Source of the DNA: an uncultured Acidimicrobiales bacterium | GTDB taxonomy: Bacteria; Actinomycetota; Acidimicrobiia; Acidimicrobiales; VFJN01 | Assembly: GCA_963842395.1 (NCBI GenBank) | Contig: CAWJGJ010000002.1 | Span: forward strand, 114,978 to 178,977 | Length of the DNA stretch: 64,000 nucleotides | Reading direction: 5' to 3' | Shown: piece by piece, positions 1,674 to 57,780 of the stretch | Position numbering within the stretch: the stretch's first letter is position 1 | Layout of the letters: every line of letters begins with the position of its first letter | Translations under genes and position numbers: made by a program | The notes under the pieces: generated by a model | Databases searched by the model: none | Seen by the model: the letters and a program-made list of their open reading frames with translations, nothing else | What the model was told of the DNA's origin: nothing

Positions 1674-2669
1674 ATGACCGCGCACGTGCGGGAGGCGGTG
1701 AACGAGGACCGGTTCGCCGCCGAGACCGAGCGGTTCCGCCGGGAGCTGTTGGCGCACTGCTACCGCATGGTCGGCTCGGCGCATGACGCGGAGGACCTGG
1801 TGCAGGAAACGTACCTTCGGGCCTGGCGTGCCTACGCTGGCTTCCAGGGCCGAGCGTCGATCCGGACCTGGCTCTACAAGATCGCCACCAACGTCTGCCT
1901 GACAGCCTTGGAGCCGCGCCGGCTCCGGGTGCTGCCATCGGGCCTGACAGGTCCATACGACGGACCCGATCGCCCGCCGAATCAGGCGGCGCCGGGCGAG
2001 GTCTCGTGGCTGGAACCCTTGCCGGACCGATGGATCGCCCCCGCCGCCGACGATCCGGCCGCGGCAGTGATCGCGCGCGAGTCGCTACGGCTGGCGCTCA
2101 TCGCGAGCCTGCAGCACCTGCCCGCCCGCCAGCGCGCGATCCTCATCCTGCGCGAGGTGCTGGCGTTCTCTGCCGTCGAAACTGCGGAGATCCTCGGCAC
2201 CACAACGGCAGCGGTGAAGAGCGCTCTGCAGCGCGCCCGCGCCCGGCTGGACGAACTGGAGCCAGAGCCCGAGGAACTGCTCGAACCGACCGACGAGCGG
2301 GCACGTGCGCTGCTCGACGGCTACATCGCAGCCTTCCAGCGCTCCGACGCTGAGCTGCTGGAACACGTGCTGCGGATGGACGCCACGCTGGAGGCGACGC
2401 CATTCCGCGACTGGCAGGCGGGCAGGGTGAAGTGCATCCACATGCTCGACACCTACGTGCTGGGCGCGCCGGGCGACTGGCAGATGACCGCCACCACAGC
2501 CAACGGCCAGCCCGCCGCCGCCGTGTACCACCGGGACGCGGACAACACCCTCCAGGCCCACGGCATCGTGGTGCTGGCCCCAACCGCCACCGGTGTCTCC
2601 CGCGTGGTCGAGTTCCACGATCCGGCGCTTGTCGCCACGTTCGGGTTCCCGGACGTGCTCGCAGACTGA
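1674..2669 (+). CDS. ECF sigma-70 family factor with long C-terminal SnoaL-like extension (SigG-like, about 330 aa type)
   Basis: Region 2 (HCYRMVGSAHDAEDLVQETYLRAW, IRTWLYKIATNVCL) and region 4 (LPARQRAILILREVLAFSAVETAEILGTTTAAVKSALQRAR), followed by about 130 extra residues. Confidence 0.9.
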   Translation: MTAHVREAVNEDRFAAETERFRRELLAHCYRMVGSAHDAEDLVQETYLRAWRAYAGFQGRASIRTWLYKIATNVCLTALEPRRLRVLPSGLTGPYDGPDRPPNQAAPGEVSWLEPLPDRWIAPAADDPAAAVIARESLRLALIASLQHLPARQRAILILREVLAFSAVETAEILGTTTAAVKSALQRARARLDELEPEPEELLEPTDERARALLDGYIAAFQRSDAELLEHVLRMDATLEATPFRDWQAGRVKCIHMLDTYVLGAPGDWQMTATTANGQPAAAVYHRDADNTLQAHGIVVLAPTATGVSRVVEFHDPALVATFGFPDVLAD

Positions 2670-6457: not shown

Positions 6458-7258
6458 TCAACGCCCGCGGAACTCGGGCGCCCGCTTCTCGATGATCGCC
6501 TGCACCGCCTCCTGCCCGTCCTCGCTGTCGAGGCCGGCCAGCGCGCTGCGGATCTCATCGGTCATGCGGGCGTCGACGTCGCTGATCAACGGCGTTCTGG
6601 CGACGAGATGCTTCGTGCGCCGAACGGCGAGCGGTGCCTGGGCGGCGACCATTCCGCAGAACTCCAGGAGCCGCCGGTCGAGCTGATCGGCCGGAACCAC
6701 CTCCGACACGAGGCCGAGGCGGAGCGCCTCGTCGGCATCCACGAAGCGGGATTCGAGCAGGAAGCGCAGCGCGATCTCGTGACCGACGAGGGTCGGCAGC
6801 GACCATGTGAGTCCCCCGTCGGGCGACGTGCCCGCTCGCAGGTATCCCGGGTGCAGGCGGGCCGAGTCGGCCGCGATCCGGATGTCGGCGGCCATCGCCA
6901 GCGACAGACCCGCACCCACGGCCGCCCCGTTGATCCCGGCGACGACCGGCTTGTCGGTCTCGAACCGCAGCGCGAGCAGGAACCGTCCGACCCAGCTCTT
7001 CTCGTCGAGCATCTGCTCCTGGTCCGTCAGCCCGGTCTCGACCGGCGTGTCGTCACCACCACCCAGGTCGAGGCCGGAACAGAACGCGTCGCCGTTGCCG
7101 GTCAACGCGATGACCCGGACGTCGTCGTCCGCGTGGGCGTCTCCGACGGCCCGCACGATGCTCCAGCCGAGCGACGAGGTGAGCGCGTTCTTCCGCTGGG
7201 GACGGTCGAGCCTCAACACCCTCACGTGCCCGACGGTCTCGGCGGCCAGCTGCGACAT
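6458..7258 (-). CDS. Enoyl-CoA hydratase/isomerase (crotonase) family
   Basis: MSQLAAETVGHVRVLRLDRPQRKNAL ... VIALTGNGDAFCSGLDLGG ... KPVVAGINGAAVGAGLSLAMAADIRIA. ATG at 7258-7256. Confidence 0.85.
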   Translation of the reverse strand: MSQLAAETVGHVRVLRLDRPQRKNALTSSLGWSIVRAVGDAHADDDVRVIALTGNGDAFCSGLDLGGGDDTPVETGLTDQEQMLDEKSWVGRFLLALRFETDKPVVAGINGAAVGAGLSLAMAADIRIAADSARLHPGYLRAGTSPDGGLTWSLPTLVGHEIALRFLLESRFVDADEALRLGLVSEVVPADQLDRRLLEFCGMVAAQAPLAVRRTKHLVARTPLISDVDARMTDEIRSALAGLDSEDGQEAVQAIIEKRAPEFRGR

Positions 7259-7377
7259 CGCGCAAGGCTGCCATGCCCGACCGGCGCATGCCGTCTCCCC
7301 GAGAGCGGTGCGTGCAGCGTGTCGAACGCGCCGCACGCCATGCCGAGCCGTCGATCGTCGGCAGGCCATCGATCGGG

Positions 7378-7404
7378 TGTCACACCGACGGCCGGGCCGG
7401 TGTC
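7378..7404 (+). promoter_or_regulatory. ECF41-type promoter-like motif TGTCACA-N16-TGTC upstream of the SigJ-like gene
   Basis: TGTCACA at 7378-7384, 16-nt spacer, TGTC at 7401-7404, continuing TTCATGCCGAA. Nearly identical to the element at 46903-46929 on the minus strand. Resembles the ECF41 target promoter TGTCACA-N16-CGTC as I recall it. Confidence 0.5.
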
Positions 7405-7534
7405 TTCATGCCGAACGCCGATCGCTGGAGGTCGACATGCAGTCCAGCCCACGAGTCCCCGAGGCAGAGGATGGCGGCGTGCACGGGGCCCCGAGCGGCC
7501 GCCTGCCGAGCGGTCGCCACGTAGCCTCGCCGTC

Positions 7535-8404
7535 ATGAACGCCGACGCGTTCGCCCAGCACCGCCGCCTGCTGTTCACCGTCGCCTACGAGATGCTCGGC
7601 TCGGCGTCGGATGCCGAAGACGTCGTCCAGGAGACCTGGCTGCGGTGGGCGAAGGTCGACCAGTCGATCGTGCGCGACCCGCGCGCCTACCTGGTCCGCA
7701 TCGTCACCCGTCAGGCGCTCAACCGGCTCCGCACCCTCTCCCGGCGGCGGGAGGACTACGTCGGGGAGTGGCTGCCCGAGCCGCTCGTCACCAGCCCCGA
7801 CATCGGCGACGACATCGAGCTCGCCGAGAGCGTGTCGATCGCCATGCTGACCGTGCTCGAGACGCTGCGCCCCACCGAGCGGGCGGTGTTCGTGCTGCAC
7901 GAGGTGTTCGACACGCCGTACGACGAGATCGCCGAGGCGGTCGACAAGACGCCGGCAGCGGTGCGCCAGCTCGCGCACCGAGCCCGCGAGCACGTCGCCG
8001 CCCGCCGGCCACGGATGGATGTGAGCCGGGCCGAGCAGGAACAAGCCGTCGAGCGGTTCCTCGACGCTCTGCAGAGCGGTGACCTGCAGCGCCTGCTCGA
8101 CGTACTGGCGCCCGACGTCGTCCTCGTCTCCGACGGCGGGGGACTCGTGGCCGCGGCCCGGCGTCCGATCGAGGGGGCCGACCAGGTGGCACGCTTCCTG
8201 TCCAGGTTCCCCACCGCGGCGCCAGGCGCGCAGGTGCACACGGTGCTCCTGAACGGCGCACCCGCAGCCCGGATCGACCCGCTGGGCGCGGCGGACACCG
8301 CGGTCAGCCTCGTGGTCCAGGGTGGGCGCATCTCCCGGATCTACGCCGTGCGCAACCCCCACAAGCTGGCACGGCTCGACACGGAGACGCTGCTCACCCG
8401 CTAG
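7535..8404 (+). CDS. ECF sigma factor, ECF41/SigJ-like (fused SnoaL-like C-terminal domain)
   Basis: FAQHRRLLFTVAYEMLGSASDAEDVVQETWLRW (region 2), RAVFVLHEVFDTPYDEIAEAVDKTPAAVRQLAHRAR (region 4), about 110-aa C-terminal extension ending RIYAVRNPHKL. ATG at 7535. Confidence 0.9.
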   Translation: MNADAFAQHRRLLFTVAYEMLGSASDAEDVVQETWLRWAKVDQSIVRDPRAYLVRIVTRQALNRLRTLSRRREDYVGEWLPEPLVTSPDIGDDIELAESVSIAMLTVLETLRPTERAVFVLHEVFDTPYDEIAEAVDKTPAAVRQLAHRAREHVAARRPRMDVSRAEQEQAVERFLDALQSGDLQRLLDVLAPDVVLVSDGGGLVAAARRPIEGADQVARFLSRFPTAAPGAQVHTVLLNGAPAARIDPLGAADTAVSLVVQGGRISRIYAVRNPHKLARLDTETLLTR

Positions 8405-10601
8405 CTGCGACGCTCCGGCGTGACCGCACGAGTGCGGTGACGGACAGGCCGAACAGGGCGAGAGTCGGGATGGCCATGAGCCACAGCCGAGCGGCGCTCT
8501 CCGGGTTCTCGTAGTCATCCATGAGATAGAGGAGCTCGGCGATCAACAACATCAACGGGGTGGCGGCCACCGTGACGAGGAGCCAGCCCCCGACCTGCGG
8601 AGCGAGGAACCGCAGGCCGGCGTAGACCAGCGCAACGATGGCGACGCACGCCAGCAGGTACCAGAAGTCCGTCGCGCCGTTCGTGCCGAACAGGCCCCCG
8701 TACGGCTCGTCGTAGAGCGTGTAGAAGTCCACGTCCAGCGACAGGACGACGAGGAAGGACACGGCGATCGTTCCGACCTCGAGGCGTCTCGGCAACCAGC
8801 TCCCTCGACGCCAGGCACCGGCCCTGAGCAGCGCCAGGCCCGTCAGGCCCGAGAGCATCACGAGCCCGGCGGTCACCGTGGACCAGCCGTTGTCCTCCAG
8901 CAGCCATCCGTAGCCCGCGTGGCGCGTGGCAGCGCCGTCGCCGAGGACGAACAGGGACCACGGCACCGCGATGCCGAAGACGCAGGCCATGCTGCGCACG
9001 GCCCCGAGCGACGAGAGACGGCGCAGCCCGAGCATCGCCAGGGAGACGGCGCCGACGGTCACCAGTGCGATGCCACTCACCACCTCCGGCAGGAGCGGCC
9101 CGCCGGTGGCCTGGCGCCGCAGCGTGATGTTCTCACCGGTCTCGTACTCGATCGCGTCGATGAGACCGCCGTACGACACCACGACCGCGAGGCCGACGAT
9201 CAGGCTGGCGAGGGCCACGCCGGCGGCCCACCAACGGCGATCACGCCAGCGGGACGGGCCATCGCCGCTCGGCCCCTCCCCTGGCTCGGCGACAGCCGGC
9301 TCCGCCTCGGTCGGCGGCGGAGGCACAGCCGCCTCGGCCTCGATCGGCGGTGGCAAGGGCCGAGCTGCGGCCGGTTCCGCCTCCGCTGGCTCAGCTATGG
9401 CCGGCTCCGCTACGGCCGGTTCCGCCCCGGTGGGCTCAGCTACGGCCGGTTCCGCCTCGGTCGGCGGTGGCGACGGCGCCACCGAGCGCTCCTGGCGCGG
9501 GCTCGGCGGGGGTGAGGCCTCGCGCGGGTCGGCCACCTCGGCCGGGCGCCCGACCGGCGCGCGGACGCGCACGCTCACCCTGATCGTCTTGAGCGCCCCG
9601 CCGGCCTCGCGCACGTGGACGTTGGCCCGGTTGGGCCCGGGGCGCGGATGCAGGTGGAGCACGACGGCCCCGCCCTCGGCCACCGGTTCGACCCAGCCGG
9701 CCGTCGTCTCGACGGTCCAGTCGAGCGTTCCGCCCCCGCGGTTGATGACGGCGATGCGCTCGGGCGGCAGGTGCTCGTCGCTGCCGACCTCCCCGAGGTG
9801 GATCGCCGTCTCCGAGAGGTCGAGGACAGGTGTGGACTCCACCGGATCGACGACGTCGACGGGCGGGCGCTCGGCCTGGGTCACGGCCCGACGGGCCAGG
9901 GCGACGTCACCGTCGCCCTCGAAGCGCTTCTGGGGCACCTGACGCCCCTCGTTGGCGAGCGCCGTGCGCACATAGTCGTACAGCTCGCTCAGCGTGACGA
10001 TGCCGTCGTCGTCGTGGTCGACGGCGCCGCTCACGATGCCCTCGGCCAGGTGATGGGTGAACAGGCTGGCGTGATTGCGGACGTCGGCGTCGTTGGCCAG
10101 CTCACCTGGACGGCAGCTCGTCACGACGAACCGCCCCCGCCCCGACAGGGCCGCAGGGATGTCGCCACCCTTGAACCGGCCGCTGTGGCAGCAGTCCAGC
10201 ACGACGACCATCGTCCCCGCGGACGATGCATCCATCATGCCCCGAAGGTCCGATGCCTTGACCGCTGTCGACCTCAGGCGGTCCGAGCGTGTGTCGCGCG
10301 TGCACAGGAACAGCTCGCCGGACTGATCGAGCAGCCCGTGGCCGCTGTAGTAGATCAGCAGGGTGTCCCGACGCGTCGCGCTGACCAGGAGATCCTCTGC
10401 CTCGCTCAAGACCTCGGCCATCGTCCGCTCGGTCACCAGCCGCACGTTGTCCGGGGCGAACAGCCCGACCTCGCGTTCGCACAGCGCATCACGCAACAGC
10501 GCCGGATCGTTCCGCGGTCCCTCGAGATCGGGCAGGTTGAAGGCGTCCGCGGGGAACGTCGAGTTGGCGATCAGGACGGCTCGATAGGTCTGGGCCGTCA
10601 T
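8394..10601 (-). CDS. Caspase-family (peptidase C14) protease fused to EF-hand-like loop, beta-rich domain, Pro/Ala/Glu repeat linker and C-terminal 8-TM domain
   Basis: His/Cys dyad context YYSGHG and VVVLDCCHSG. Acidic loop DHDDDGIVTLSELYDY. Eight hydrophobic helices in the last ~275 aa. ATG 10601-10599 overlaps the TGA (10600-10598) of the upstream ORF. Confidence 0.85.
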   Translation of the reverse strand: MTAQTYRAVLIANSTFPADAFNLPDLEGPRNDPALLRDALCEREVGLFAPDNVRLVTERTMAEVLSEAEDLLVSATRRDTLLIYYSGHGLLDQSGELFLCTRDTRSDRLRSTAVKASDLRGMMDASSAGTMVVVLDCCHSGRFKGGDIPAALSGRGRFVVTSCRPGELANDADVRNHASLFTHHLAEGIVSGAVDHDDDGIVTLSELYDYVRTALANEGRQVPQKRFEGDGDVALARRAVTQAERPPVDVVDPVESTPVLDLSETAIHLGEVGSDEHLPPERIAVINRGGGTLDWTVETTAGWVEPVAEGGAVVLHLHPRPGPNRANVHVREAGGALKTIRVSVRVRAPVGRPAEVADPREASPPPSPRQERSVAPSPPPTEAEPAVAEPTGAEPAVAEPAIAEPAEAEPAAARPLPPPIEAEAAVPPPPTEAEPAVAEPGEGPSGDGPSRWRDRRWWAAGVALASLIVGLAVVVSYGGLIDAIEYETGENITLRRQATGGPLLPEVVSGIALVTVGAVSLAMLGLRRLSSLGAVRSMACVFGIAVPWSLFVLGDGAATRHAGYGWLLEDNGWSTVTAGLVMLSGLTGLALLRAGAWRRGSWLPRRLEVGTIAVSFLVVLSLDVDFYTLYDEPYGGLFGTNGATDFWYLLACVAIVALVYAGLRFLAPQVGGWLLVTVAATPLMLLIAELLYLMDDYENPESAARLWLMAIPTLALFGLSVTALVRSRRSVAASG
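9283..9472. repeat. Intragenic tandem/nested repeats (15-nt units plus a ~40-nt duplicated block) encoding AEPAV-type pentapeptides
   Basis: Units ggctcagctatggcc / ggctccgctacggcc / ggttccgccccggtg / ggctcagctacggcc / ggttccgcctcggtc. Block at 9283-9322 is repeated at about 9433-9472. Protein reads TEAEPAVAEPTGAEPAVAEPAIAEPAEAEP ... TEAEPAVAEP. Confidence 0.7.
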
Positions 10602-10984
10602 GGCCCAGCCGGCAGCTTCTGCGTCACCGTCGCCAGGAGGTCGTCGAAACGGGCGCTGTCGACCGCCGAACCGGACAGCTCGATCGACTCGACCGCACCG
10701 GAGTCGGCGGACCACGACACCTTGAGCGAGCGGGTGCGGTCGCGGCTCAGCCACGAGCGCGCCAGCTCGATCATCGCGGTCAGCCCCCCGGCGGAGACGA
10801 GCGGGATCACGATCGAATCGATGGCACCCTTGGCGCCCGGCTCCGGCGCTCGTCGCATCGCCACGCCGCCGACCCCGGCCTGCAGTTCGCCGACGAGTCC
10901 ACCGACCTGGTCCAGCCAGCGATCGTCCTGCATGTCGAAGCGCCCGCTCGCCGGTTCGAGCCGAAGCTCGACCTGCCCATCCAT
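10598..10984 (-). CDS. Small EACC1-like protein (effector-associated constant component), partner of the caspase gene
   Basis: 128 aa. AGGAGG 6 nt upstream of ATG 10984. ATGA overlap with the caspase start. Layout is a short N-terminal beta segment (VELRLEPASG), a hydrophobic core (IDSIVIPLVSAGGLTAMIELARSWL) and a C-terminal SLKVSWSADSGAVESIELSG. This matches my memory of EACC1 proteins but has not been checked with an HMM. Confidence 0.6.
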   Translation of the reverse strand: MDGQVELRLEPASGRFDMQDDRWLDQVGGLVGELQAGVGGVAMRRAPEPGAKGAIDSIVIPLVSAGGLTAMIELARSWLSRDRTRSLKVSWSADSGAVESIELSGSAVDSARFDDLLATVTQKLPAGP

Positions 10985-11111
10985 CGCGACCTCCTGGCCG
11001 CCGACGACGCCTGCCAGCGCCGTCGCCAGCCGGAAGTGTATTTCCCATTGCCGGCCAGCGGTAGGAATCGAATCCCTAGCGCCGCCCGGTCGCGGCTCGA
11101 CCCGGGTGGCG

Positions 11112-45833: not shown

Positions 45834-46214
45834 TCAGAGCGGCCAGCGGATGATGCAGAACTCGTTGCCGAACGGGTCCTTCATGACGGCCCACTCGAGG
45901 AGATCCCTGCCCTCCGGGGCGTACATGCCCGGCCACCTCACGACGACGCCGCCGATCGCCTCGATCTCTGCGACCGCAGCGCCGACGTCGTCCACCCGGA
46001 AGTCGACATGGGTTCCTCCTGGCCCGCTCTGCTCGGGGACCAGCTGCAGCAGGATCCACCCGTCTGACTCCGCGGGGTCATCCGCGTCGAGGACGGAGAA
46101 CTGACCATGTCGCCCCTGAGGCGACAGCCCGGACACCGCCGACCAGAACCGCTCGCCCTCGTCCAGGTCGGTCACGTTGATGACGGGCTTCCAGAGCTTC
46201 GCGATACCGGCCAC
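45834..46214 (-). CDS. VOC family protein (second, adjacent)
   Basis: INVTDLDEGERFWSAVSGL ... THVDFRVDDVGAAVAEIEAIGG ... MKDPFGNEFCII. GTG 46214 chosen as start. Confidence 0.7.
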   Translation of the reverse strand: MAGIAKLWKPVINVTDLDEGERFWSAVSGLSPQGRHGQFSVLDADDPAESDGWILLQLVPEQSGPGGTHVDFRVDDVGAAVAEIEAIGGVVVRWPGMYAPEGRDLLEWAVMKDPFGNEFCIIRWPL

Positions 46215-46278
46215 GGGAACACGATGCCCCGTGGCCGGCGCGTCCTCAATGTGCGTTCGGCGGTGAACCCGTCGTCGC

Positions 46279-46869
46279 TCACGCCGACGTCGCGGACCTG
46301 GCGGAGGGTTGCGCCAGCGGCAGCGCGCACACCTTGGAGAACCCTTGGGACTCGATCCCCAACGCCGTGTTGCCCCTCGTCGTCGAGTTCGCGAATCCGA
46401 CAACGGCCGTGAGCTCCACCAGGGCCGGCGCTCCCAGCTTCTTGAGCAGCCGGGCGGACAGCTCGTCGGTGACCCGCGGGGGCGTCTCGCTCATCGCCTC
46501 GGCGTACTCCATGACGTCACGCTCGAGCGGCGTGAACACGGTCGACTCACGCCACCGGGGCACCTCGCTGGCCTTCGCCTCGTCGAGTCCCTCGTTGTGG
46601 GCCTTGAAGTAGTTGAAGTCGAGGCACCAGGAGCATCCGACCAGCGAGGCGACCGCCATGTGGGCGAAGGTCTTCAGGTCGGGATCGAGCTGGTCCCACT
46701 TCTCGACCTTGCGGCCGAACCCCATGGAGCTGAAGAGCACCGCCCGGTTGTGCCACATCACTCCGGCCCCCTCGGGGACCTCACCGAGAAGCTTTCGGCT
46801 GAATCGCTTCAGCATCCACCCGTAGAAGCCGGTGATCTCGGCCTTGGGAATCCGAGGTGTGCTCGCCAT
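46279..46869 (-). CDS. Carboxymuconolactone decarboxylase (AhpD-like) family protein
   Basis: AGGAGG RBS before ATG 46869. AHMAVASLVGCSWCLDFNYF (CxxC-type AhpD-like core) and VELTAVVGFANSTTR. Confidence 0.85.
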   Translation of the reverse strand: MASTPRIPKAEITGFYGWMLKRFSRKLLGEVPEGAGVMWHNRAVLFSSMGFGRKVEKWDQLDPDLKTFAHMAVASLVGCSWCLDFNYFKAHNEGLDEAKASEVPRWRESTVFTPLERDVMEYAEAMSETPPRVTDELSARLLKKLGAPALVELTAVVGFANSTTRGNTALGIESQGFSKVCALPLAQPSARSATSA

Positions 46870-46902: not shown

Positions 46903-46929
46903 GACACCGCCCGCGTCCCGTGTGTGACA
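46903..46929 (-). promoter_or_regulatory. ECF41-type promoter-like motif TGTCACA-N16-TGTC upstream of the CMD gene
   Basis: Minus strand reads TGTCACA(46929-46923)-cacgggacgcgggcgg-TGTC(46906-46903)TTCATGTCGAAGACA, about 30 nt upstream of the CMD RBS. The -10 side (cggTGTCTTCATGnCGAA) is identical to the element at 7398-7415. Confidence 0.55.
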
Positions 46930-57385: not shown

Positions 57386-57621
57386 CGCCCGGCACCGTAC
57401 AAGCACGCCGCGCAGAGTGACCGACGTCACTGTTCTCTCCCGAGCGACTGCACCACGCGTCGCGCCCTCGTCCCGTGGCTGGGAGGACCCGTCTCCTCGG
57501 ATGACCTCGAACCGTGCGGCGGCGGTCGACGCGTACAGGCGTACCGATTCGCGTACCGGTCACCTCGGGTGGTCGAGTCGACAACACCGAAATTTGTACC
57601 GTGGCCAGGGAGTTTGTGTCG

Positions 57622-57694
57622 TGGGCCCGGTGGGGATCGAACCCACGACCTAGCGATTATGAGTCGCCTGCTCTGACCACTGAGCTACAGGCCC
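57622..57694 (-). tRNA. tRNA-Met (anticodon CAT), elongator-like
   Basis: Minus strand GGGCCTGTAGCTCAGTGGTCAGAGCAGGCGACTCATAATCGCTAGGTCGTGGGTTCGATCCCCACCGGGCCCA folds as a cloverleaf (7-bp acceptor, GTTCGATCC T-loop). It lacks the three G-C pairs of initiator tRNAs. A lysidine-modified tRNA-Ile2 cannot be excluded. Confidence 0.85.
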
Positions 57695-57707
57695 AGGTCG
57701 TGACCAG

Positions 57708-57780
57708 CTCCGGGGGTGGGGCTCGAACCCACGACCCACGGATTAACAATCCGTTGCTCTGCCAACTGAGCTACCCCGGA
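57708..57780 (-). tRNA. tRNA-Asn (anticodon GTT)
   Basis: Minus strand TCCGGGGTAGCTCAGTTGGCAGAGCAACGGATTGTTAATCCGTGGGTCGTGGGTTCGAGCCCCACCCCCGGAG. Perfect acceptor, anticodon and T stems. Confidence 0.95.

Follow-up and report, generated by a model that had tools for sequence, protein, structure and literature searches.

The locus described here raises two questions: (i) why an ECF41 sigma factor gene that has no intact carboxymuconolactone-decarboxylase-family (CMD) gene beside it should be preceded, at a short distance, by a promoter of its own family's type; and (ii) which sigma factor reads that promoter. The window, by which we mean the entire 64-kb stretch of DNA that was analysed, contains the following elements at this position:

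7535..8404, + strand: ECF41/SigJ-type sigma factor gene ("sigma A"), 289 aa, ATG start
6458..7258, - strand: enoyl-CoA hydratase gene, divergent, given as context (domain search)
7378..7384, + strand: -35 element TGTCACA of site A, an exact match to the published ECF41 -35 element (PMC3426412)
7397..7414, + strand: extended -10 block CGGTGTCTTCATGCCGAA, matching the family consensus CGGTGTCTtCATGTCGA
7401-7404, + strand: core -10 element TGTC of site A

Sigma A is assigned to the ECF41 family by its domains and its linker. The protein contains Sigma70_r2 (residues 6-70) and Sigma70_r4_2 (residues 103-153), that is, regions 2 and 4 with no region 1 or 3, and these are followed by a C-terminal extension matching SnoaL_2 at residues 172-235 (33.7 bits, cut-off 27); ECF41 proteins are recognized by such an extension of ~100 aa with a SnoaL-like fold. 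It passes TIGR02957 (352.7 bits, cut-off 323.25) and NF007214, the model of the SigJ subfamily (323.9 bits, cut-off 271), and its translation includes the WLPEP linker motif (...YVGEWLPEPLV...), an ECF41 characteristic according to Wecke et al. (PMC3426412). Its closest relatives come from MAGs of Acidimicrobiales/Acidimicrobiia. The gene is flanked by the divergent enoyl-CoA hydratase gene and a convergent caspase-domain gene, neither of which encodes an anti-sigma factor, and a domain scan of the immediate neighbours (enoyl-CoA hydratase, thioesterase and caspase-domain protein) gave no anti-sigma domain. A sequence-only reading of this DNA had described the gene as an ECF41-type sigma factor with regions 2 and 4, a fused SnoaL-like domain and no anti-sigma gene nearby, a description that the domain searches bear out. 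The second sigma factor encoded within the window is ECF56-like, not ECF41. With respect to linkage with a COE gene (carboxymuconolactone decarboxylase, oxidoreductase or epimerase), the CMD gene adjacent to sigma A is a 33-codon relic, and an intact CMD gene lies 39 kb away; such linkage is typical of the family rather than obligatory, with more than 30% of ECF41 genes being orphans (Wecke et al. 2012, PMC3426412).

Site A can be read directly from the sequence as TGTCACA (7378-7384), a 16-nt spacer and TGTC (7401-7404) on the + strand, with 131 nt separating its -10 element from the sigma ATG at 7535; the earlier reading had given the same coordinates and a distance of about 130 nt. The target promoter TGTCACA-n16-CGTC was defined experimentally in B. 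licheniformis and R. sphaeroides (Wecke et al. 2012, PMC3426412). Site A has the exact -35 element, a spacer of 16 nt where 16 +/- 1 is allowed, and TGTC, an accepted variant, as its -10 element. TGTC differs from the published consensus CGTC and is the norm across the related operons of the matrix set described below; a further variant, TGTT, is functional in B. licheniformis (PMC3426412). Because the "G" start mapped by Wecke et al. (2012) precedes a 22/23-nt UTR, transcription from site A is predicted to begin at the G at ~7410. Reading of the sequence between the -10 element and 7535 gave no in-frame start codon, and a scan of 7150-8600 showed the + strand to be free of terminator-like sites from 7404 to 7535. 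The sigma gene is preceded, then, by a promoter of its own type without an intervening terminator, which is the sequence arrangement looked for in a positively autoregulated ECF sigma gene.

A short bipartite motif could in principle arise by chance in GC-rich DNA, and the bare heptamer does not argue otherwise, as TGTCACA occurs 6 times in the window against 4.3 expected. Because the heptamer alone is unenriched, the signal resides in the bipartite arrangement. The pattern TGTCACA-N16-YGTC, which the sequence-only reading had proposed as a genome-wide search and which we ran on both strands of the 64-kb window, is present twice, at 7378(+) and 46929(-), against 0.06 occurrences expected from dinucleotide shuffles, and thus exceeds chance here. 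A position weight matrix of 44 nt, trained on 68 promoters of related operons (training range 32.8-60.5 bits), gave 43.2 bits for site A (7378) and 59.9 bits for the second copy, site B (46929(-)), with the next best of ~128,000 window positions at 5.3 bits. The score of site A is therefore ~38 bits above the best background site and falls inside the range for promoters of intact operons. As the sequence-only reading had noticed, the -10 side of site A is identical to that of the copy 39 kb away; the two share the 13-nt block CGGTGTCTTCATG over the -10 element, and in the related promoters the consensus is the same block. The homology to promoters of related operons moreover continues from the -35 element into CMD coding sequence: when 114 loci were used to build an nhmmer profile covering the promoter, the UTR and the initial 90 nt of CMD, the profile matched the window at 7370-7490 with E=1e-14, its alignment extending ~54 nt into the CMD coding region of the relic. 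In light of the pattern counts, the matrix gap and this match, we reject a chance origin of the motif as wholly improbable.

The first question turns on the ~130 nt that separate site A from sigma A. These contain the following features:

7427..7431, + strand: Shine-Dalgarno sequence GGAGG of the relic ORF, the former CMD ribosome-binding site (anti-SD duplex -11.2 kcal/mol)
7437..7538, + strand: relic ORF of 33 codons, remnant of the operon's CMD gene, with ATG at 7437 and a TGA that overlaps the sigma ATG (ATGA)
~7437-7490, + strand: 5' part of the relic, CMD codons 1 to ~18 (nhmmer profile match)
~7492-7534, + strand: 3' part of the relic, last ~14 CMD codons (alignment to L081 and L084)

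The first 17 codons of the relic, MQSSPRVPEAEDGGVHG, are similar to the N-terminal sequence of CMD, MASTPRIPKAEITGFYG, and the DNA alignment runs from the -35 element into this coding region. When the window was scored with a matrix of CMD codons 2-11, position 7440 ranked second of ~128,000, and only the intact CMD gene (CMD-B, below) ranked above it. The 3' part was identified only by pairwise alignment to the close relatives L081 and L084, and it was missed by an nhmmer profile made from the final 90 nt of CMD across the broad family. L084, whose sigma is 85% identical to sigma A and whose CMD gene is full, aligns to the window in two blocks, of which 7371-7439 corresponds to its promoter and ATG, and 7492-8405 to the last 42 nt of its CMD gene together with its sigma gene; where L084 has ~540 nt of CMD sequence separating the two blocks, the window has 52 nt. 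For L081, which retains CMD and has a sigma 90% identical to sigma A, the alignment begins at 7493. In the alignment of the 3' part, a 1-nt insertion is offset by the deletion junction, such that the net reading frame is kept. Judged from these alignments, the "leader" before sigma A is the remnant of a deleted CMD gene.

The ancestral arrangement can be seen in the relatives of sigma A. We collected 162 loci encoding sigma factors 69-90% identical to sigma A from genome and metagenome collections. In 133 of these a full CMD gene lies directly upstream of the sigma gene on the same strand, and in a further 14 the CMD gene is cut by a contig end, so that 147 of the 162 have the CMD-then-sigma layout; 8 loci are too short for a decision, and 7 are without CMD. 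A motif search that allowed TGTCAC[AG] and a spacer of 15-17 nt placed the promoter ahead of CMD in 107 of the 133 loci with full CMD, the median distance to the downstream sigma gene being 649 nt. The CMD stop codon overlaps the sigma start codon, as ATGA or GTGA, in 145 of 152 loci, and the sigma genes of these operons lack a Shine-Dalgarno sequence (median anti-SD energy -4.5 kcal/mol). From the locus counts, the position of the motif and the stop/start overlap, it follows that the normal state of this sigma lineage is an operon of promoter, CMD and sigma with translational coupling. Wecke et al. (2012, PMC3426412) likewise report COE followed by ECF, with the promoter on COE, as the predominant type of ECF41 locus.

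We consider it likely, therefore, that site A is the promoter of an ancestral bicistronic CMD-sigma (COE-ECF41) operon whose CMD gene collapsed to a relic, and that the sigma gene is now probably self-transcribed. An internal deletion of ~490-540 nt would have cut the CMD cistron down to the 33-codon relic ORF, while sparing the promoter, the 5'UTR, the strong Shine-Dalgarno sequence with its ATG, and the ATGA stop/start junction. It is because the CMD cistron was deleted internally that the sigma gene would now have a promoter of its own type only 131 nt upstream. The sequence-only reading had missed the ancestral CMD-sigma operon to which the promoter motif belongs, the nature of the leader as a CMD remnant, and the expected COE-type target, a CMD gene, downstream of the second copy of the motif.

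If this explanation is correct, ECF41 holoenzyme would initiate transcription near G7410, and ribosomes would load at the GGAGG/AUG at 7437, translate the relic, terminate at the UGA at 7536-7538 and reinitiate at the overlapping AUG at 7535. The sigma gene is without a ribosome-binding site of its own: the anti-SD duplex energy at the sigma A ATG is weak, at -0.3 kcal/mol, compared with -11.2 kcal/mol for the relic ORF and -12.1 kcal/mol for intact CMD-B. The relic stop at 7538 overlaps the sigma ATG at 7535, and this overlap together with the lack of a Shine-Dalgarno sequence is what would be expected of translational coupling. The outcome would be positive autoregulation of sigma A. Self-transcription of the sigma gene, with its translation coupled to the relic ORF, is thus the likely mechanism.

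Other CMD-less relatives have comparable remnants. Mini-ORFs that end at the sigma start codon, as ATGA or GTGA, are present in L083 (29 codons), L030 (26 codons), L018/L114 (26 codons, ending in GTGA) and L013 (5 codons), and in L071 and L148 the old start codon is apparently joined in frame to sigma. Their retention would fit a need for coupling, and in statistical terms is only suggestive: the coupling frame is kept in five of seven architectures (p ~0.045, a binomial estimate made by hand), where the cases are possibly non-independent and the assemblies prone to indels. Given the marginal p value, the doubtful independence and the indel errors in MAGs (L030, L082), frame retention is not relied on here as evidence of selection; frameshifts are seen in the CMD genes of L081 and L011 and in the L030 sigma gene. 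In a neighbour-joining tree of the sigma genes, the window groups with L081, in which CMD is present (69% bootstrap), and L082 pairs with L083 (100% bootstrap); outside that pair branch L084, which has CMD, and L018, which has a relic. The tree points, with weak support, to more than one CMD excision event.

The persistence of translatable mini-ORFs ending at the sigma start in several CMD-less relatives, and the keeping of the net frame in the window through an insertion offset by the deletion junction, could also be taken to mean that the 33-codon ORF was recruited as a regulatory leader peptide, for example as a signal-sensing uORF, rather than serving merely as a passive coupling device. 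We regard this as very improbable, because neither the sequence nor the length of the ORF is conserved: the relics range from 5 to 33 codons, and their nucleotide identity is 47-62%, with indels. The leader RNA (7410-7560) is in addition no more structured than shuffled sequences (folding z = 0.01), and no Rfam family matches near the sigma locus; on the same two results, a structured RNA or riboswitch in this leader was rejected.

The pattern of conservation bears on whether site A still functions. Between the window and its CMD-less close relatives L083, L082 and L030, identity is 89-93% in the region from the -35 to the -10 element, 86-89% from the -10 element to the ATG (including the UTR and Shine-Dalgarno sequence) and 89% in the sigma gene, compared with 47-62% in the body of the relic, where there are also indels. 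These values indicate constraint on the promoter and the translation-initiation signals, in contrast to the drifting former coding sequence. The suggestion of autoregulation in the sequence-only reading gains comparative support in this way, in that the promoter and 5'UTR (86-93%) are as conserved as the sigma gene; the accompanying view that the arrangement is unusual was mistaken, because it is the expected state for ECF41.

An alternative explanation is that site A is a fossil, left over from the operon and no longer functional, with the sigma gene transcribed from another promoter of housekeeping type within 7259-7534. The adjacent CMD gene has clearly decayed, which means that the locus has tolerated loss of function, and an autoregulated sigma gene still requires basal transcription from some other source. 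A promoter, UTR and Shine-Dalgarno sequence as conserved as the sigma coding sequence, next to a relic body that has decayed, are not what a fossil would be expected to leave, and the matrix score of site A lies within the range of intact-operon promoters. There is no sigma-70-type promoter consensus in 7150-8600, although searching with an E. coli-type consensus has little power in a high-GC actinobacterium, and because the upstream gene is divergent there is no read-through into sigma A from that side. We consequently find the fossil interpretation improbable.

The second copy of the motif lies in a locus with a complementary organization:

46903..46929, - strand: site B, second ECF41-type promoter, TGTCACA-N16-TGTC (pattern and matrix, 59.9 bits)
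46279..46869, - strand: CMD-B, intact CMD/AhpD-family gene, 196 aa, with a CxxC motif (PF02627)
46250..46282, - strand: 5' stub of a lost second sigma gene ("sigma B"), whose GTG overlaps the CMD-B stop codon (GTGA), ~10 codons, VSDDGFTAER

The ATG of CMD-B is ~34 nt downstream of site B, and the gene is a canonical COE-type target of ECF41 sigma factors. It is 60-85% identical to the sigma-linked CMD genes of related operons, with 80-85% identity to CMDs linked to "B-type" sigmas and only 60% to that of L084, a member of sigma A's own clade. In an alignment of 12 operon junctions, the 27-33 nt that follow the CMD-B stop codon (VSDDGFTAER...) match the beginning of sigma (MSEDGFARHR...) in those operons that have the CMD most similar to CMD-B. 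In one of these relatives, L163, a CMD gene 91% identical to CMD-B is followed by a full sigma gene of 289 aa; the DNA of L163 and locus B is 92.8% identical over a stretch that opens with the first base of the -35 element and breaks off 17 nt inside the sigma gene. With a matrix of sigma codons 2-10, the sigma B stub ranks second of ~128,000 positions, behind the real sigma start. The L163 sigma is only 72% identical to sigma A, and two CMD-sigma operons (L011 and L026) occur together in one MAG. At the level of sequence analysis, the motif, the homology of both relics, the operon ancestry and the differential conservation can be regarded as demonstrated.

The simplest reading of the two loci is that two paralogous operons appear to have decayed reciprocally, with A losing its CMD gene and B its sigma gene. 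Locus B may instead be a transposed partial copy rather than the site of an in-place loss of sigma B. Its flanks are not syntenic with those of L163, the DNA homology being confined to the stretch between the -35 element and the first 17 nt of sigma, and the downstream Glyoxalase_6 genes of the two loci are only 29% identical; because of this lack of synteny, an in-place deletion and a transposed copy are indistinguishable at locus B.

With regard to the second question, we infer both the sigma dependence of site A and the sigma factor that reads site B. Sigma A most likely controls CMD-B as well, in which case it would drive an unlinked CMD gene at 46.9 kb in addition to its own transcript. 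A competing possibility is that the main reader of both sites is a different ECF41 paralogue whose gene lies outside the window, with sigma A downstream in a cascade. Actinobacterial genomes often contain several ECF41 copies (PMC3426412), as does the MAG with two CMD-sigma operons, and 64 kb is a limited view of a genome. There is also an experimental precedent in M. tuberculosis, where sigma-J activates the promoter of sigI, another ECF41 gene (Goutam et al. 2017, PMC5766207). Such cross-regulation seems unlikely to us, because the ancestral operon has the sigma gene behind the same promoter, which makes reading by sigma A itself the simplest assumption, and because the sole other trace of ECF41 in the window is the dead stub, its second sigma factor being ECF56-like. 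The sigma-J/sigI pair is nonetheless a useful comparison to self-reading by sigma A. Both would involve an ECF41 sigma factor transcribing an ECF41 sigma gene, in the M. tuberculosis case dependent on the SnoaL_2 domain; that case is experimentally established cross-regulation between paralogues, whereas the relation proposed for the window is probably self-directed.

Several other known systems have parallels with the locus. The ydfG-ecf41Bli type of B. licheniformis, with COE followed by ECF41, has in common with the window the -35 element TGTCACA, the 16-nt spacer and a YGTY -10 element. More generally, the COE-ECF41 operon type has a CMD-family first cistron and a sigma with a fused C-terminal domain and no anti-sigma, which is the layout of the great majority of the relatives described above; the window differs from it in that the CMD gene is a 33-codon relic, the promoter is 131 nt rather than ~650 nt from the sigma gene, and the working CMD gene is unlinked, 39 kb away. 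In the ecf41Rsp-RSP_0606 locus of R. sphaeroides, the sigma gene lies within its own target transcript (Wecke et al. 2012, PMC3426412), as we propose for the window, and there too the genes overlap and are served by a single promoter of TGTCACA-N16-CGTC type. Unlike in the window, the order is sigma then CMD, and the CMD gene is intact and co-transcribed.

Sigma A is best placed among the orphan ECF41 genes that carry the family promoter, having no adjacent COE gene and the motif in front. This is a known type, and self-regulation is already known for the ECF41 family. In the sequence-only reading, the published motif was taken to belong to the COE gene rather than to the sigma gene; this is incorrect, as Wecke et al. 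(2012, PMC3426412) report it upstream of ECF41 genes, of COE-ECF41 operons and of ~30% of orphan ECF41 genes. The origin of the orphans is unexplained in that work, whereas the window preserves a relic of the COE cistron and a reciprocal sigma stub at an unlinked CMD gene. We found neither an origin of orphans from a collapsed COE cistron nor a reciprocal sigma stub described in Wecke et al. (2012) and later ECF41 papers. We therefore put forward, with about even confidence, the proposal that orphan self-regulated ECF41 genes arise repeatedly through near-precise excision of COE, in which the promoter, the ribosome-binding site and a minimal coupling ORF are kept by selection, together with the reciprocal decay of operons A and B in this genome.

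Finally, we consider what the locus means for the family. The general picture of ECF41 regulation is unchanged, because target transcripts that include the sigma gene itself, and ECF41-type promoters before ECF41 genes, were described in 2012. For annotation, the 130-nt "leader" should be read as the remnant of a CMD pseudogene, and sigma A as an operon-derived orphan. Within ECF41 biology, the locus would show concretely how orphan ECF41 genes with the family promoter, a class already published, can originate. The relic ORFs, which range from 5 to 33 codons across the relatives, provide a natural experiment on whether sigma translation depends on coupling. If the explanation proposed here is true, the surviving sigma factor would control a CMD gene that evolved under a different sigma, and we suggest that this would be an example of regulatory rewiring by complementary gene loss.

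The sequence conservation around the ECF41-type promoters continues 3′ of the TGTC, past the published CGTC -10 element. Among 68 promoters of operons in which a carboxymuconolactone-decarboxylase-family (CMD) gene precedes the sigma gene, a stretch of approximately 10 nt, TtCATGTCGA, directly following the -10 element, is strongly conserved, with individual positions reaching 2.6 bits; when the TC of TGTC is counted in, the conserved block reads TCTtCATGTCGA. There are two possible scenarios for these nucleotides: they may represent the start site together with the initially transcribed region, or else they may be a binding site for another factor.

7405-7414 (+) and 46902-46893 (-): block directly 3′ of the -10 element; also in operon promoters among the related loci L001-L080

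Three other features of the window are listed here.

8394-11048 (-): 884-aa ORF with a caspase (Peptidase_C14) domain, convergent with the ECF41 sigma gene
1698-2624 (+): gene for a second sigma factor, which is extended at its C-terminus; TIGR02960 / PRK08241 match
57621-57780 (-): adjacent tRNA-Met (CAT) and tRNA-Asn (GTT) genes, found with Rfam

The caspase-domain ORF and the ECF41 sigma gene overlap by 11 nt at their 3′ ends. The second sigma factor shares only 29% identity with the ECF41 sigma factor, and its TIGR02960 / PRK08241 score exceeds the cut-off, a match that we take to indicate the SigG/ECF56 type as a putative group; a promoter matrix scan of the window found no ECF41-type site close to this gene. 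The Rfam search of the window gave no matches besides the two tRNA genes.

A glyoxalase-fold gene follows both CMD-B, the intact CMD gene of the window, and the sigma gene of the related locus L163.

45834-46214 (-): Glyoxalase_6 gene, next after CMD-B
L163:4548-4991: Glyoxalase_6 gene, next after the sigma gene

The two share only 29% identity over 90 aa, and their presence in both places either is coincidental or reflects a loose link of glyoxalase-fold genes with this type of operon.

One gene call of 413 aa (P0053), on a 399-kb contig, joins a CMD domain (PF02627) to a full sigma factor (79% identical). The fusion of CMD and sigma may be genuine, or read-through at the ATGA junction may have produced it as an artefact.

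Apparent frameshifts are seen in two sigma-linked CMD genes: that of L081 (L081:1-394), the closest relative, whose sigma factor is 90% identical to that of the window, and that of L011 (L011:3413-4001). In L030 there is a frameshift within the sigma gene as well. The CMD frameshifts of L081 and L011 may reflect early pseudogenization of the same cistron, which the window has lost by deletion; alternatively, they may be assembly errors. Finally, we note that L011 and L026 are two separate CMD-sigma operons in one genome (MAG CAWAQO01, MFD02840.bin.2.225), and thus the ancestral state of two operons proposed for the window does occur in relatives.
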